6,645 nt of DNA, taken from IMG/VR virus record IMGVR_UViG_2740892269_000011, one strand, 5' to 3'. Below, piece after piece: positions 1 to 6,645 of this stretch. How positions within the stretch are numbered: the first letter of the stretch is position 1; each line of letters opens with the position of its first letter. The notes below the pieces were generated by a model. The model saw nothing but the letters and a program-made list of their open reading frames with translations. It made no database searches and was not told the DNA's origin. The position numbers were made by a program, and so were the translations under genes. This DNA is from a virus (Duplodnaviria > Heunggongvirae > Uroviricota > Caudoviricetes).

Positions 1-13
1 GTCCAATGTGCAT

Positions 14-51
14 AAAAAAATCCGGAAACAAGTGAGCGTTTCCGGATTCTT
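14..51. terminator. Bidirectional rho-independent terminator hairpin downstream of ratB
   Basis: Perfect 10-bp inverted repeat ATCCGGAAAC (20-29) / GTTTCCGGAT (38-47) with 8-nt loop, flanked by A7 (14-20) upstream and TTCTT downstream. On the minus strand the stem is followed by U7, immediately 3' of the ratB stop at 125. Confidence 0.6.
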
Positions 52-124
52 ACACAGCCACTGGATCGGTCAACTGATCCTTAACTGATCGGCATTAGCT
101 CAATGAGCACCTTTTTTCTGTCTG

Positions 125-415
125 TTATTTATTCGCTGATTTTTCTGCTCGTTGCCTGCGAAGCTCTTTCGGATCGGCAATGAGAGGGCGATAAATCTCC
201 ACCCGATCGCCATCATGCACACTATCGCTTAGTTTTGCCGGACGGCTGTAAATGCCGACTTTGTTTTTAGTTAAATCGATATCGGTACGCAATTCCAGCA
301 AGCCACTGGCGCGAATAGCTTCTTCAACCGTCGCGCCCTCCTGCAGCGTCACGCGCTGCAGGTACTGCTTCTCAGGTAGCGCATAAGCCACCTCAACGGC
401 AATTTTACCTAGCAC
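125..415 (-). CDS. ratB: RatB / YfjF (UPF0125, RnfH-like) protein, 96 aa
   Basis: The ORF-track frame 125..499 contains ...[96 protein letters not shown], which I recognise as E. coli YfjF. Start taken as GTG at 415..413, giving 96 aa and an 11-bp overlap with ratA. Conserved position next to ratA-smpB-ssrA. Confidence 0.88.
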
Positions 416-881
416 TGTAAACCTCTTTCGCACGAACCGTAAAAGCCTGGACCATATTAGACGCCAGCTCTTTAAACACGCGACCAAAGGCGAGTTCAAT
501 CAACTTATTGGTAAACTCAAAGTCGAGATGAAACTCGATACGACACGCCTCCTGGCTCAGCGGCGTAAACTTCCATCCACCAATCAATTTCTTGAACGGC
601 CCATCCACCAGATTCATAAGAATACTTTGGTTACTGGTCAACTGGTTGCGGGTAGTAAACGTTTTGCTGATCCCAGCCTTAGAGACATCTACCGCCGCAG
701 TCATCTGCCCAGGAGTGGACTCCAGAATCCGACTTCCGGTACAACCCGGCAAAAACTGAGGATAAGACTGAACGTCATTCACTAACTGATACATTTGCTC
801 CGCGCTGTAGGGTACCAGTGCGGTCCGGCTAATCTGAGGCATAACTATTTCCATCAACAAAAATCCAACAAATAATATCAT
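405..881 (-). CDS. ratA: Ribosome association toxin RatA (YfjG, SRPBCC/polyketide-cyclase-like), 158 aa
   Basis: 158-aa [50 protein letters not shown]... matches my memory of E. coli RatA. ATG at 881..879. Divergent from smpB, as in E. coli. An internal ATG (MPQIS...) is an alternative start. Confidence 0.9.
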
Positions 882-1012
882 TTATCCTGCTGTAAAAAAA
901 ACGCTATCCCGGCGCTGGGTAACATCGGGTTCATGCTAAGATAGAGCCTTGTCCCCCGCAGGATTGATATGGGGTGTTTTCGATTTCAGATTACCGATGA
1001 TTCACGACGCTT
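882..1012. promoter_or_regulatory. Divergent intergenic region expected to carry the ratA-ratB and smpB promoters
   Basis: 131-bp AT-rich spacer between divergently oriented ratA (start 881) and smpB (start 1013). Candidate -10-like hexamers TAAGAT (937-942) and TGATAT (965-970) are visible, but I could not assign confident -35/-10 pairs by eye. Confidence 0.3.
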
Positions 1013-1495
1013 ATGACGAAGAAAAAAGCACATAAACCTGGTTCAGCGACCATCGCGCTTAACAAGCGCGCCCGTCACGAATACTTTATCGAAGAAGAGT
1101 TCGAAGCGGGACTTGCCCTGCAAGGCTGGGAAGTTAAATCCCTGCGCGCAGGAAAAGCCAATATCAGCGACAGCTACGTCCTTCTGCGTGACGGAGAGGC
1201 ATTTCTGTTTGGCGCTAACATCACGCCAATGGCCGTGGCCTCCACGCATGTGGTGTGCGATCCTACCCGTACCCGCAAGTTACTTCTCAACCAGCGCGAA
1301 CTGGACTCATTGTACGGTCGCGTCAATCGAGAAGGCTATACCGTAGTGGCGCTCTCCCTGTACTGGAAAAATGCCTGGTGCAAAGTGAAAATCGGCGTCG
1401 CCAAAGGTAAAAAACAGCACGATAAACGTTCAGATATCAAAGAACGCGAATGGCAGGTGGATAAAGCACGTATCATGAAAAACGCCCACCGTTAA
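1013..1495 (+). CDS. smpB: SsrA-binding protein SmpB (trans-translation cofactor), 160 aa
   Basis: [163 protein letters not shown] is the canonical E. coli SmpB. It sits immediately upstream of ssrA as expected. Confidence 0.97.
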
Positions 1496-1659
1496 ACCTG
1501 CACTCCAATTATTGACCAGTTCCTCACCGCGCCTCCCTCTCCGGCGGCGCGAATGAACATCTTATTGGCTATCACATCCGACACAAATGTTGCCATCCCA
1601 TTGCTTAATCGAATAAAAATCAGGCTACATGGGTGCTAAATCTTTAACGATAACGCCAT

Positions 1660-1709
1660 TGAGGCTGGTCATGGCGCTCATAAATCTGGTATACTTACCT
1701 TTACACATT
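1660..1709 (+). promoter_or_regulatory. Putative ssrA promoter and short 5' leader of the tmRNA precursor
   Basis: TATACT (1690-1695) lies about 14 nt upstream of the mature tmRNA 5' end (GGGGCUG at 1710). tmRNA is known to be made as a precursor with a short leader removed by RNase P. A -35-like TGGTCA sits at 1667-1672 (17-bp spacing). Hexamers were assigned by eye only. Confidence 0.4.
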
Positions 1710-2072
1710 GGGGCTGATTCTGGATTCGACGGGATTTGCGAAACCCAAGGTGCATGCCGAGGGGCGGTTGGCCTCGTAAAAAGCCGCAAAAAATAGTCGC
1801 AAACGACGAAAACTACGCTTTAGCAGCTTAATAACCTGCTTAGAGCCCTCTCTCCCTAGCCTCCGCTCTTAGGACGGGGATCAAGAGAGGTCAAACCCAA
1901 AAGAGATCGCGTGGAAGCCCTGCCTGGGGTTGAAGCGTTAAAACTTAATCAGGCTAGTTTGTTAGTGGCGTGTCCGTCCGCAGCTGGCAAGCGAATGTAA
2001 AGACTGACTAAGCATGTAGTACCGAGGATGTAGGAATTTCGGACGCGGGTTCAACTCCCGCCAGCTCCACCA
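1710..2072 (+). ncRNA. ssrA: tmRNA (SsrA, 10Sa RNA), 363 nt
   Basis: Starts GGGGCTGATTCTGGATTCGACGGGATTTGCGAAACCC and ends GGGTTCAACTCCCGCCAGCTCCACCA (tRNA-like T-arm and CCA). Contains the tag frame GCA AAC GAC GAA AAC TAC GCT TTA GCA GCT TAA TAA (ANDENYALAA). Matches the E. coli ssrA sequence from memory over the whole length. Confidence 0.97.
1799..1831 (+). other. ssrA: tmRNA mRNA-like domain: tag-peptide reading frame ANDENYALAA (resume codon GCA at 1799, tandem stops TAA TAA)
   Basis: Direct translation of 1799..1828 gives A-N-D-E-N-Y-A-L-A-A, followed by TAA at 1829-1831 and a second TAA at 1832-1834. This is the canonical enterobacterial degradation tag. Confidence 0.92.
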
Positions 2073-2173
2073 CTTTTGACAGGACTGCAACCGGACAGAG
2101 ACTATAAAAACAGTCACTTACGGACACTGACCAGACAGTAAGCGGACCAGAAAAAGACAAAAATATACACGCA

Positions 2174-2189
2174 AAATGCACGTGCATTT
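2174..2189. repeat. Perfect 16-bp palindrome AAATGCACGTGCATTT (CACGTG core)
   Basis: Read directly from the sequence: positions 2174-2189 are identical to their own reverse complement. Located in the ssrA/prophage junction, 7 bp upstream of the terminator stem. Confidence 0.6.
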
Positions 2190-2190
2190 C

Positions 2191-2226
2191 AAAAAAGCCT
2201 CTGATTATGAAGTCAGAGGCTTTTCT
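2191..2226. terminator. Bidirectional rho-independent terminator between convergent ssrA and the prophage tail operon
   Basis: Stem GCCTCTGATT (2197-2206) / AGTCAGAGGC (2211-2220), 10 bp with one G-U pair, loop ATGA. Flanked by A6 (2191-2196, giving U6 after the stem on the minus strand) and TTTTCT (2221-2226) on the plus strand. Lies 45 bp 3' of the terminal minus-strand ORF stop (2271). Confidence 0.65.
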
Positions 2227-2270
2227 AGTTGTAAATAAGGGTAACAATTTAACACGATGCAGCTTACCAA

Positions 2271-2834
2271 TTACGTAACATCAAACGCTCTAATTGTTCC
2301 CAAATCCTCCAGACCACTCAGCTCCTCTTTCATTTCACGCTGACGGCGATAAATCTCATCGTTGCGATCGACCTGCGCCTGCACCATTGCTGCCGCCAGT
2401 TCTTCCAGTTCCGGCATCGACAGTTTCACCTGCTGATTATCGGCATCACCCCACGCCATATGCGTTTGTGCTGTGACAGATTTTGCCAGCATGACTACCG
2501 GGGACAGGCGGCCCAGTGAGTCGGGGCCAGCATTCCAGATACGACCATTCCATTCAAACGTGAACGGCTTCGCCTCCTGTTCTGTGCGCCATGCTTCAAT
2601 TTCCTGACGTCTGGCCTCTCTGGCCGCTTCCAGCATTTCTGGTGTCACAGTGAATGGGGCTATCTCACCCCATTTGCCACTTTGCAGTTCCTGCCAGATT
2701 CGCTGACCCGTCGGTGCGACATCATCAGCGGTGGCTGTGTAGGGGACTGCCTGGTCCCTGTCGTCAAAAAAAACGTCACAGTCTACTGCGCCACTTTCGG
2801 TATAACGGGGATTAATGATTTTTTTAATTTCCAC
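2271..2834 (-). CDS. Hypothetical prophage protein in the tail-fibre-chaperone position; family not recognised (187 aa from GTG 2834; longest frame 207 aa from ATG 2894)
   Basis: Long open frame ending at TAA 2273..2271. GTG at 2834..2832 is preceded by GAGGA at 7-nt spacing and lies 10 nt after the upstream fibre stop (TGA 2847..2845); the alternative ATG at 2894 would overlap that fibre frame by 50 bp. The translation (…KPFTFEWNGRIWNAGPDSLGRL…ELEELAAAMVQAQVDRNDEIYRRQREMKEEL…) lacks the lambda Tfa / P2 gpG C-terminal signature, so a chaperone role is inferred from position only. Confidence 0.6.
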   Translation of the reverse strand: MEIKKIINPRYTESGAVDCDVFFDDRDQAVPYTATADDVAPTGQRIWQELQSGKWGEIAPFTVTPEMLEAAREARRQEIEAWRTEQEAKPFTFEWNGRIWNAGPDSLGRLSPVVMLAKSVTAQTHMAWGDADNQQVKLSMPELEELAAAMVQAQVDRNDEIYRRQREMKEELSGLEDLGTIRAFDVT

Positions 2835-2844
2835 GGTGCATTCC

Positions 2845-3342
2845 TCACGATGTGCGAATAAAAAGCCCGGGCATTGCGCCAGAGACATGAGCATCCGGCA
2901 CCCCGGACAGGGCGCTATATGACCCCGGTAATGAATGCTCTGAACATCCCGTAATGAAAAATTGTGGGGATGCTATATACGTTCCGGTGGGAGTACTGGG
3001 CACTGAAATCCCCACCGGTCCCAGTCGTGAGCCTCTGTATGACTGCCCCCTGACAAGTCTGATGACTTTATCACCGTCAGCTTCTCCCTGGTACGCAGCA
3101 ATAATCAGCCCGCCAATGTCAGGGTCTCCCCATCTGTTGCAGACAGAGCTCGCCACGATTCTGTAAATAATATCTTCTGTGGTTATATTTATTTTCACCC
3201 AGCCAGTCAGTCTGGATATGGGCCAGTAGCAGTAGCGGGTGTGATAAATGGGGCCGTTAATGCCGTAAAAAGTAAGGGATTTGGCTCTGTACCTCGGTTC
3301 TGTTGTCTCAGGGCGTGCATCAGTCCACCGGATGCTGAGCAC
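2845..3342 (-). CDS. C-terminal fragment of a disrupted second tail-fibre gene; unrecognised distal domain (frame open without a start codon up to 3549)
   Basis: ORF-track ORF of 165 aa starting at GTG 3342. My translation shows the same frame is open upstream to 3549 (…RKRTAFGFGCAFLPEDVIRFDTKSDFLAWVRNALPGEYSVAGPYDIIIPDTRFEGVLSIRW…) with no ATG/GTG/TTG, and the GTG at 3342 has no properly spaced SD. Best explained as the downstream part of the gene begun at 3869, in a different frame. Confidence 0.5.
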   Translation of the reverse strand: MLSIRWTDARPETTEPRYRAKSLTFYGINGPIYHTRYCYWPISRLTGWVKINITTEDIIYRIVASSVCNRWGDPDIGGLIIAAYQGEADGDKVIRLVRGQSYRGSRLGPVGISVPSTPTGTYIASPQFFITGCSEHSLPGSYSALSGVPDAHVSGAMPGLFIRTS

Positions 3343-3416
3343 CCCTTCAAACCGTGTGTCGGGTATGATGATGTCGTAGGGGCCAGCAACGGAATATTCA
3401 CCTGGCAGCGCATTCC

Positions 3417-3869
3417 TTACCCAGGCCAGGAAATCACTCTTAGTGTCAAAACGGATAACATCTTCAGGCAGAAAAGCACACCCAAAGCCGAATGCTGTGC
3501 GTTTCCGGCTGCGGCCCCGGCGCTCTGCTGCGCCTGCGCCACCATTTCCTCAAAGCGTTTGACGACATCCGGTTTCAGGTCGCCCTCATCAGGAGCAATC
3601 AGAAAGTCATTCAGCGTGCCGGGCTTTGAGTCGTCGTATACAGCAATGTCGCCAACACAGTACTCGTCGCGCCAGTCCCGTTTCAGATACACGCAATATT
3701 TTCCGACCTGTGCCTCAAACGAATATTCACCGTTATTTCCGGTCACTACATCAGCCCTGGTACGCATCACCACTTCTGAGGTGTTTACACGGGATTTCAG
3801 AATAATCTGGCATCCGGACATGGGGATGCCTGCGCCATCAGTCAGCGCACCTGATATCACTACAGACAT
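3417..3869 (-). CDS. N-terminal fragment of a side tail fibre (lambda Stf-like prophage tail-fibre N-terminal domain), truncated by a frame change
   Basis: MSVVISGALTDGAGIPMSGCQIILKSRVNTSEVV…GEYSFEAQVGKYCVYL…GDIAVYDDSKPGTLNDFLIAPDEGDLKPDVVKRFEEMVAQAQQSAGAAAG aligns motif-by-motif with the lambda Stf N-terminus as I recall it (MAVKISGVLKDGTGKPVQNCTIQLKARRNST…GTITVYEDSQPGTLNDFLCAMTEDDARPEVLRRLELMV). After the Ala-rich linker the frame decays into non-protein-like sequence (…LGVLFCLKMLSVLTLRVISWPG*). ATG at 3869 follows the upstream Tfa stop by 23 nt. Confidence 0.75.
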   Translation of the reverse strand: MSVVISGALTDGAGIPMSGCQIILKSRVNTSEVVMRTRADVVTGNNGEYSFEAQVGKYCVYLKRDWRDEYCVGDIAVYDDSKPGTLNDFLIAPDEGDLKPDVVKRFEEMVAQAQQSAGAAAGNAQHSALGVLFCLKMLSVLTLRVISWPG

Positions 3870-3892
3870 AGTTTTTCTCGCGATAAATTAAA

Positions 3893-4438
3893 TCAGGAAG
3901 AACCTTCCGGAGAGACGGACCATTCAATGGCGTTATATGAGGATTTATCAGTGATGGTGCTGAAATCCATCGCCTGCAGCGATTTCGCGTAAATACGGTA
4001 CGCTTTCAGTTTTTCCCGGTCTTCGTCGCTGATTAGCCCCAGCAGCAGGTCTTCTTCCCATTCCCCTGTCCGGGCACTGACCTGAGCCAGAAGGGCATCA
4101 CGCTCATCTTCCGCTTTGAGTCTGTAGTCAAAGACAAATTCATCATTGCGGTAAAACCAGTAACCCGGCGCGGTAATGCGGCGGTTGGCGGTAATATCAG
4201 GAACTTCAATAACACTGGCGTTACGGGGTTCAATGCCTGTCACATCCTTACCGACCCACACCACGCGCCCGTCTCCGGTGTAAACCATTTTTATGGTGTC
4301 ACTGGCAAAGTTCTTCTGTTCTTCATACCAGTTTTTGCCGTCTTCCGAAAAAAGCCAGGTGACATCATACTGTTTTGTCAGCTGATATTATTCCGCGGTT
4401 TTCGGATTACCTGCCGTAATATTTTTTAAATGCAACAT
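3893..4438 (-). pseudogene. Tail fibre assembly protein (P2 gpG / Caudo_TAP-like) interrupted by an in-frame TAA at codon 17 (4390..4388)
   Basis: From ATG 4438..4436 the frame reads [56 protein letters not shown]…SVIEVPDITANRR…EKLKAYRIYAKSLQAMDFSTITDKSSYNAIEWSVSPEGSS. It is continuous and gpG-like on both sides of the stop, with a Tfa-type C-terminus. The ATG lies 2 nt after the fibre stop (TAA 4443..4441). The track ORF 3893..4288 is the part downstream of the stop; its ATG has no SD. Confidence 0.8.
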
Positions 4439-4440
4439 TG

Positions 4441-5493
4441 TTAAATACTCGCTACGTTATACCAGGTGCCATTAATCAGTTTTTGCAGCGGTCGGTAATA
4501 CACGCCGTTGACGTTATCCGCTGAGTTACGGCCGGTATCCGATATCGATATCCCTGACAGCCCGTGTCCCGAAGGTGAGCGAAATGTCCACGAAACGGTG
4601 TTACTGCCGGGGGGGTAATACATTTCATAACCATACCGCACATCCTGCACGCCACCATTTCGCTGCTGGTAACGGGCATCAAAGTTTCCGTAGTCTGACG
4701 GTGTTACCCGTCCTGTAACGTTTACAGCTTTATTACTCTGGATACTGCCACTCTGAAAACGCAACACATGCACGCTATTGGCATAAACATCCAGCAGGCC
4801 ATCACCATTCTGTTTGAATCCGGTGTCATTATCACCAAGAACAATTGAATTCCCCCCCAGGGCGTTCTGAACGCCGATACCCAGCGCACCATTGACCTGC
4901 GAACCACCGCCAACAGACACTTTATGCGACATGGATATTTCACCCGTCCGCAGATTAATGGTGAACGGGCGCAGGGGACCAATATCGCCATTTTCCCCCT
5001 GACCTTCACTGGTGGGAATAAGGTGCAGGCACTCTTCCGAACGACGAAAAATCAGGCCAAAAGCTTCGTTGAAAATCCTCAGCGCATTAACACCACGGAT
5101 TTTCAGCTCTCCGGTCATGGTGTCGCCATCACGCTGAACGGCATTTTTTGCCTTATCCACCGTGGGTTTTAATCCGAGGTTTTCAACAGCCTCATCCCTG
5201 TCTTCCACATCCGAAAGGTTATTTTTTATCAGCAATGCCTCTTCGTTAATTGCACCGCCCACCAGCAATAATATAGCCTTATATAGCTGGTCGTGTTCTT
5301 CTTTATTCAGTTCTATCCCGGCCTTCTCAATGACACCACAGATTTCCTCCTGAATGGCATTCCACATGGCACTGTTCAGCCAGGTAGCAAGACGTCCTGT
5401 GCGAAGATTTCCGTCAGTAAATCCGTTCTTACCCGGACCAAACTTATCTTTTACCGCAGTCAGCGTATCAATCCTGTGCATCTTCATCCTCAT
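4441..5493 (-). CDS. Tail fibre protein with a P2 gpH-like C-terminal receptor-binding region, about 347-350 aa
   Basis: C-terminal half contains NALGGNSIVLGDNDTGFKQNGDGLLDVYANS…SDYGNFDARY…LINGTWYNVASI, matching the conserved distal part of P2 gpH-type fibres from memory. Three in-frame ATGs at 5493, 5487 and 5481; the last has the best SD (AGGA, 5-nt spacer). Followed 2 nt later by the Tfa start. Confidence 0.85.
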   Translation of the reverse strand: MRMKMHRIDTLTAVKDKFGPGKNGFTDGNLRTGRLATWLNSAMWNAIQEEICGVIEKAGIELNKEEHDQLYKAILLLVGGAINEEALLIKNNLSDVEDRDEAVENLGLKPTVDKAKNAVQRDGDTMTGELKIRGVNALRIFNEAFGLIFRRSEECLHLIPTSEGQGENGDIGPLRPFTINLRTGEISMSHKVSVGGGSQVNGALGIGVQNALGGNSIVLGDNDTGFKQNGDGLLDVYANSVHVLRFQSGSIQSNKAVNVTGRVTPSDYGNFDARYQQRNGGVQDVRYGYEMYYPPGSNTVSWTFRSPSGHGLSGISISDTGRNSADNVNGVYYRPLQKLINGTWYNVASI

Positions 5494-6058
5494 CTGGATA
5501 GGAAAATAAAACGACGGTGTGTGACGGACATAATTTATTAATCACGCACTCCGCAACCGTATCCCCCCACGTCCGGATCGGTGTGTTGCAGGCGTCCGTG
5601 CATGTCTGCCACTGAGCACCGGCATCCATCGGCAACGTCACACGCCAGAAATAACGCCAGCGATCTCCCCATTCCGGATCGGGGCTTGCATCCAAGTGCT
5701 GGAACTGTTCGATCGTTACGCCGGTATATCCCAGCGCCTCAAGCTGATCCAGGAAGAACTGCTCATTTATGCCACCAGCCACATTGGCTTTTGCTTCAAG
5801 ACGTTGCTGACGCTGGCGTAATGTCTGGGTTCCGACAGGGGAACAGGAATCAGGTAAACCATACAATTCTTCATAACGTTCAATCAGCTCTGTGGACTGA
5901 CCGGGATCGATTTCAATCACCAGTTCATCAGCCCGCTGGTGAACACGCACAAGCGATGGTGCCAGACCGTCAAGTACACCGTCGGTATCTGACCATGCAG
6001 GCCCCGGCGGCATCAGTCCGTACAGCAGCTTTGTATAATCATCCTGTAACGAATCCAT
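5468..6058 (-). CDS. Phage tail/baseplate protein, YmfQ / Mu gp48-like (DUF2313-type), 196 aa
   Basis: MDSLQDDYTKLLYGLMPPGPAWSDTDGVLDGLAPSLVRVHQRADELVIEIDPGQSTELIERYEELYGLPDSCSP…TLRQRQQRLEAKANVAGG… resembles e14 YmfQ-type proteins as I recall them. The start ATG overlaps the upstream stop as TAATG (6060..6056). Sits between baseplate J-like and fibre genes as in e14 and Mu. Confidence 0.7.
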   Translation of the reverse strand: MDSLQDDYTKLLYGLMPPGPAWSDTDGVLDGLAPSLVRVHQRADELVIEIDPGQSTELIERYEELYGLPDSCSPVGTQTLRQRQQRLEAKANVAGGINEQFFLDQLEALGYTGVTIEQFQHLDASPDPEWGDRWRYFWRVTLPMDAGAQWQTCTDACNTPIRTWGDTVAECVINKLCPSHTVVLFSYPDEDEDAQD

Positions 6059-6645
6059 TATTTACTCCTTGCCGGGTCATAAGCCTGCCAGGTGATCTCG
6101 CCGAGCACCGGAAGCTCGGTCTCCCCCAGGTCAATATCCGATGAAGGGACGATTAACCGGTGGGCCACTTCACCAGCAGACAAACTGATGGCCTCACTGA
6201 TTCTGGACAGATACATACGCCCCTCTGGCACACCATCCCGTAACATCAGTGCATTCAGCTCTGCTTTTATTGCAGTCCTGATCTGCGGTGTGTCTTTCGA
6301 TAATGCAATCGTCATCGGGATGACTTTTTCTGTGGCACCGAATACATACAATCCGCTTCCGGCAACAGGTGCCAGAGGAAGGATGTGGTCCCTGACTGCG
6401 TTAATCACGCTTTCATCCGGGGCCGGGCGTTCCGGATCGTTTGTCGCCACCATCACGCCAACCGTTCCAGTGCCTTTCCAGTGTCTGAAAGTCCATGCAC
6501 GGTTAATACCCTGAACTTCTTTCGCCCAGATAACATAATCAGGGTCTGCGCCCCCGGTGATGCTGCCAACTTACTGATTTAGTGTATGATGGTGTTTTTG
6601 AGGTGCTCCAGTGGCTTCTGTTTCTATCAGCTGTCCCTCCTGTTC
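6058..6645 (-). CDS. Baseplate J-like protein (Mu gp47 / P2 gpJ family), C-terminal portion; 5' end beyond the window; in-frame TAA at 6573..6571
   Basis: C-terminal sequence …GGADPDYVIWAKEVQGINRAWTFRHWKGTGTVGVMVATNDPERPAPDESVINAVRDHILPLAPVAGSGLYVFGATEKVIPMTIALSKDT…LGEITWQAYDPARSK fits baseplate J C-termini. My manual translation shows the same frame open from the window edge (EQEGQLIETEATGAPQKHHHTLNQ) to a single TAA at 6573..6571, then the J-like sequence. Alternatively the gene is a truncated remnant starting at GTG 6570 or GTG 6456. Confidence 0.6.

Follow-up and report, generated by a model that had tools for sequence, protein, structure and literature searches.

The side tail fibre of phage lambda, Stf, is a long protein of 774 aa that ends in a gp37-like tip, and it is much longer than the fibre considered here. 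The fibre loci of Mu (S/S', Gin), P1 (Cin) and e14 (Pin) are composed of a constant N-terminal fibre part and exchangeable distal parts, and the fibre considered here is built likewise. Another described system is phiP27, a functional Stx2e phage (NC_003356.1), in which the region L49-L58 comprises, in this order, genes for baseplate, a gp48-like protein, a fibre, Tfa, an Stf-N fibre and a DUF4376-like protein, followed by att. The Stf-N fibre of phiP27, L56, is intact and has 490 aa. The collar domain of the Ur-lambda Stf protein has been described, and in laboratory lambda a frameshift mutation in stf blocks the synthesis and the assembly of the side fibres (PMC12617516). Here, we analysed a broken tail-fibre gene of the Stf type in a prophage remnant of Shigella sonnei (S. 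sonnei), in which the N-terminal domain and the distal part lie in different reading frames. Based on a comparison with the intact gene at the same locus, the break was assigned to an internal deletion, which is probably a real mutation of this copy of the gene.

Results

The window, by which we mean the whole 6,645-nt stretch of DNA that was analysed, corresponds to the entire contig CWTS01000190.1 of the S. sonnei draft GCA_001258935.1, which is a short-read assembly. Its features are collected in Table 1. The tmRNA gene ssrA serves as a chromosomal landmark and marks the fibre gene of the window as the ssrA-adjacent copy, copy A. Judging from their sequences, the minus-strand genes form the tail end of a phiP27-like prophage remnant with a Mu-type baseplate, which adjoins ssrA in S. 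sonnei. The exact product of the first tail-fibre gene was found in 1486 blocks of the searched collection. The DUF4376 gene lies directly downstream of the second, broken fibre gene and overlaps its 3' end by 50 nt; from its place in the gene order, it appears to sit in the position of the accessory or assembly partner of the fibre.

Table 1 Features of the window and of the paralogous copies of the fibre gene in S. sonnei.
Feature	Position	Strand	Basis or remark
IS4 end	1..97		contig terminus
yfjF, ratA, smpB	between IS4 end and ssrA		
ssrA (tmRNA)	1710..2072	+	ARAGORN
DUF4376 gene, 207 aa	2271..2894	-	PF14301 E=1.5e-16; phrog_1141 E=3.4e-88
Stf-type side-tail-fibre gene, broken	2845..3869	-	second tail-fibre gene of the module
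Native 5' part of the fibre gene, codons 1-125, Stf-type N-terminal collar/attachment domain	3495..3869	-	100% identical to Ss046 gene nt 1-377
Deletion junction, GCA triplet	3493..3495	-	alignment to the intact gene
Out-of-frame read-through, 25 missense codons (HSALGV...WPG) and TAA at 3419..3417	3417..3492 plus CA of the junction GCA	-	
Stranded 3' part, codons 208-422 and stop of the intact fibre	2845..3492	-	exact translation F208..S422, then stop
Tail-fibre assembly gene (Caudo_TAP, Tfa)	3893..4438	-	PF02413 E=7e-25; upstream of the broken fibre gene
First tail-fibre gene, 346 aa, intact	4441..5481	-	phrog_6859 E=5.5e-209
Mu gp48-like baseplate wedge gene, 196 aa	5468..6058	-	PF10076 E=2.3e-25
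Baseplate J/gp47 C-terminal fragment, cut by IS1	6058..6555	-	complete-genome gene tables
IS1 end	6556..6645		IS1 terminal sequence starts at 6556
Paralogue B	near ipaH gene and bio locus		IS-fused at gene nt 64; identical to ssrA copy nt 238-1566
Paralogue C	near mlrA		IS-truncated at gene nt 569; identical to ssrA copy nt 569-1566

In a three-frame translation of the minus strand, the frame that begins with the ATG at 3869 is open for 150 codons, up to the TAA at 3419..3417, and a second frame is free of stops from about 3540 to the TGA at 2847..2845. A preliminary description, made from the DNA letters and their open reading frames, had called the N-terminal domain Stf-like, and three comparisons bear this out. 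The profile PF08400 (phage_tail_N) matches residues 1-127 with E=2.3e-62 and a score of 209 bits (Pfam gathering threshold 26.6); residues 1-92 match the collar of the Ur-lambda side fibre (PDB 9E7M, chain 9e7m_Ta, E=4.6e-17), which is the domain described in PMC12617516; and lambda-family Stf proteins have 46% identity to the N-terminal part over residues 1-110. The stranded 3' part would be the C-terminal, presumed receptor-binding module, in a frame that differs from that of the start codon. The N-domain and the distal part are joined in a single ORF in the 422-aa orthologues and not in the window. With its ORF interrupted at 3495..3493, the window copy reads as a pseudogene of the Stf-type side-tail-fibre (PF08400) family.

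With the 346-aa fibre and the DUF4376 protein as neighbouring markers, the orthologous locus was located in complete S. sonnei chromosomes. There, next to ssrA, the gene is intact and forms a continuous ORF of 422 aa; in Ss046 (CP000038.1, about 2899369..2900637) it is annotated as 'prophage tail fiber N-terminal domain-containing protein'. The intact protein matches the phrog_2636 tail fiber with E=7.8e-205. Over all its 6645 nt, the window is 100.000% identical to the chromosome of Ss046 and to four other S. sonnei chromosomes, except for a gap of 244 nt. BLAST aligned it in two blocks, 1-3153 and 3151-6645 in reverse-complement numbering, which have 3 nt in common and between which the chromosomes contain extra sequence. 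The missing segment corresponds to gene nt 378-621, that is 81 codons and 1 nt, so that nt 1-377 abut nt 622-1269 and the window copy is frameshifted relative to the Ss046 orthologue. Both flanks of the junction are 100% nucleotide-identical to that orthologue in the same prophage-remnant locus, and this internal loss is the sole difference, the rest of the locus being otherwise unchanged when compared with the orthologues. Three features identify the copy as a pseudogene formed by deletion: the orthologue at this locus is intact, the flanks are identical to it, and the loss is not divisible by 3. The triplet GCA stands at both ends of the missing segment, at nt 375-377 and 619-621 of the intact gene, and across the junction the window reads ...GGAAACGCACAGCA on the 5' side and TTCGGCTTTGG... 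on the 3' side. The lost segment comprises an Ala-rich linker and the beginning of the conserved C-terminal module, and neither of its ends coincides with a module boundary.

The preliminary description had located the frame switch within 3480-3550, where the alignment to intact relatives, with gene nt 378-621 deleted, now places it at 3495..3493. Its estimate of about 340 aa for the whole locus agrees with 125 plus 215 native codons, and its remark that no homopolymer run is visible where the frames meet is correct for 3495..3493. It had further proposed that the fibre is far shorter than typical Stf proteins and that a deletion in the shaft fused the two halves out of frame. The gene is indeed short and has an internal 244-nt deletion that is not a multiple of 3. 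However, the shortness is mostly native, as the intact fibre itself has only 422 aa, and 81 codons were lost and no long shaft.

The intact form is widespread. The exact 422-aa protein is present on 674 contigs, and both intact boundaries were found in all 17 ssrA-adjacent S. sonnei loci fetched, which represent 15 distinct assemblies; the junction was found in none of the 17. In ten close relatives from E. coli, the gene is a single ORF of 421-422 aa, each with the extra 244 nt (a span of 475 nt vs 231 nt in the query). Sequence searches for the junction gave no hit in 5,426 complete E. coli genomes, nor in collections of species-representative genomes, metagenomes or viral contigs. An exact-protein look-up returned the 150-aa product from this contig only. 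Thus, the lesion is confined to a single short-read assembly. The intact state, which is shared by the E. coli relatives, the paralogues of S. sonnei and L56 of phiP27, is ancestral, and the deletion is derived.

The tail module was already defective before the deletion in the fibre gene, because an in-frame TAA at codon 17 of the Tfa gene (window 4390..4388), at which E. coli relatives have CAA (Gln), is common to all S. sonnei loci fetched. Furthermore, all S. sonnei chromosomes examined have the baseplate gene J interrupted by IS1. As the prophage was no longer functional, another lesion in its fibre gene would be selectively neutral.

S. sonnei has at least two further decayed copies of the fibre gene, B and C, which were read at the fetched loci L004 (6798..8085), L031 (3987..5802) and L028 (5049..5349). 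In one complete S. sonnei genome, a run of Ns lies exactly at the locus of paralogue B (L028). The fibre gene of another draft contig, CXBF01000182.1, is intact and has a paralogue-type base at nt 1592 and an A-type base at nt 1567; the gene-relative sites concerned are nt 1592, 1651, 1664 and 1666, and this base pattern suggests a mixing of paralogues in that assembly. Indels of 1 nt are found in the fibre gene of several 'complete' S. sonnei chromosomes (L009, L011, L013, L020 and L025), three times at nt 1068, as insertion and as deletion; they look like homopolymer errors of long reads and not like biology. Gene nt 376/377, the base at the left edge of the deletion, is also where eight other draft contigs of S. 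sonnei terminate. The last difference between A and B is at nt 237, from which a k of about 141 would give this end (237+140=377), while B-specific ends at 362-364 fit k=127. The contig ends at nt 376/377 are probably a k-mer effect, and their agreement with the deletion edge a coincidence; they may also represent an IS insertion or a recurrent break.

These copies bear on the question of whether the deletion is real. The gap of 244 nt could have been made by the short-read pipeline as it bridged a multi-copy gene, or a real deletion of paralogue B or C could have been threaded into the contig, the ssrA copy itself being intact. We consider this possible but rather unlikely. Around the junction, the copies A, B and C do not differ at any base over 1.0-1.3 kb, so that short reads without pairs cannot assign the junction to one of them, and the assembler had to thread an exact repeat of 1,329 nt to bridge the fibre gene. 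Paralogue bases are mixed in a sibling draft of the same series (CXBF01000182.1), and other S. sonnei drafts have N-gapped chimeric scaffolds in which the upstream side of A is joined to the downstream side of B (fetched loci L031 and L032). Every other S. sonnei locus examined is intact, the junction being unique to one draft, and the contig ends of the eight drafts that coincide with the deletion edge also count against a real deletion. However, every k-mer of a de Bruijn contig comes from a read, and with no more than 3 nt in common between the two ends, a mis-join in the graph is unlikely. The contig CWTS01000190.1 contains no Ns, and it is of the A type at every base that is diagnostic for A versus B/C, on both sides of the junction. 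Moreover, the known paralogues do not carry the deletion, and the intact 417-aa product of B is present on 9 contigs. The more specific proposal that the deletion allele is that of the known paralogue B, threaded into the contig, is not supported, as B is intact across the segment and the products of a hypothetical B copy with the deletion were absent from the protein collection in an exact look-up. A spontaneous microhomology-mediated deletion, real and located in this ssrA-adjacent copy, is the reading that we hold to be likely.

Two further readings would make the two frames a working arrangement, and both are so improbable as to be negligible. Programmed or leaky -1 frameshifting at T TTG GGT (3486..3480) would rejoin the frames into a shaft-less fibre of 340 aa. 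This heptamer has the formal X XXY YYZ pattern, it lies in the zero frame 6 nt past the junction, and a -1 slip on it enters the native C-terminal frame. In the intact gene, however, T TTG GGT is ordinary F-G-F-G coding in another frame and it comes into the zero frame only through the deletion, which also takes part of the conserved C-terminal module. UUG and GGU are poor shift codons in E. coli. The two-frame layout is found in one contig only and every homologue is a single ORF; since neither this architecture nor the slippery site is conserved among homologues, programmed frameshifting, which the preliminary description had already thought unlikely, is rejected. The second reading takes the locus as two native genes, an N-domain adaptor and a distal fibre, or as a fibre with a variable end that is switched by an invertase of the type of Mu Gin, P1 Cin or e14 Pin. 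It could account for the two-ORF appearance of the locus and agrees with the mosaic structure of Stf-N-domain fibres near residues 117-125 in the E. coli relatives. A native two-gene layout, which the preliminary description had set against its deletion reading, is ruled out by the same-locus orthologues, which consist of one 422-aa ORF; L56 of phiP27 is one ORF as well. As for an invertible segment, the C-terminal part of the fibre is co-oriented and not inverted, no invertase domain was found among the genes called on contig CWTS01000190.1, and around the fibre gene there are no strong inverted repeats, the best being 16 nt at 81%; this possibility is likewise rejected.

We infer a real mutation in the ssrA-adjacent copy, with slippage as its mechanism. 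Most likely, the 244 nt were lost in this isolate between the two GCA triplets by replication slippage or by illegitimate recombination, as a deletion between 3-nt direct repeats is the signature of slipped mispairing or of illegitimate recombination. The intact allele has perfect 8-nt inverted repeats at gene nt 347-354/613-620 and 376-383/599-606 (fetched Ss046 locus 7959..7995 and 8211..8232). These repeats bracket the deleted segment, and they pair in the MFE and centroid folds of the single-stranded DNA, which brings both copies of GCA to the foot of the stem. In stability, the predicted hairpin does not exceed shuffled sequence (z=-0.4), and the modelled fold, which would be compatible with hairpin-assisted slippage, is suggestive only. 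In the deleted allele, translation would leave the native frame after residue 125 and stop 25 codons on. The predicted product is a 150-aa stub, made of the attachment/collar domain and 25 missense residues and devoid of the distal module, and the C-terminal 215 codons would be untranslated. That the deletion is real and that this orphan collar is made and acts as a decoy by binding the tails of incoming related phages, or that low-level -1 slippage provides a shaft-less mini-fibre, has a very small chance of being true; the upstream genes of the module are broken.

Discussion

The deletion carries little biological weight: it adds one lesion to a prophage remnant in a pathogen whose genome is known to be decaying, and annotations of the intact gene already exist for hundreds of S. 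sonnei genomes. A caution can be drawn from it: frame breaks seen in short-read assemblies of a multi-copy fibre gene with a 1.3-kb repeat need support at the level of reads before they are given a biological reading. If real, the deletion is a clean one, flanked by a microhomology of 3 nt, and could serve as a strain marker.

The order of the phiP27 genes L49-L58 matches that of the window. L57 holds the same position as the DUF4376 gene of the window, and L56 aligns over 100% of the intact S. sonnei fibre at 40% identity. In contrast with the intact L56 of a functional phage, the window has a remnant whose J gene is interrupted by IS1, whose Tfa gene has a nonsense codon and whose fibre gene has the deletion. 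Unlike the loci of Mu, P1 and e14, the window lacks an invertase, inverted repeats for crossover and an alternative C-terminus in inverted orientation. The broken fibre gene is either a dead gene of an ordinary kind, in a prophage remnant undergoing decay, or the product of an assembly slip, and it involves no new mechanism and nothing new in kind. With lambda Stf, the fibre of the window shares a homologous N-terminal collar domain (PF08400; 9E7M residues 1-92). The stf gene of laboratory lambda is the closest textbook parallel, since there, as in the window, the gene is divided into two ORFs by a lesion that breaks the frame; the lesion of lambda is described as a frameshift mutation, whereas that of the window is a 244-nt deletion, in a remnant of the myovirus type with a Mu-like baseplate.
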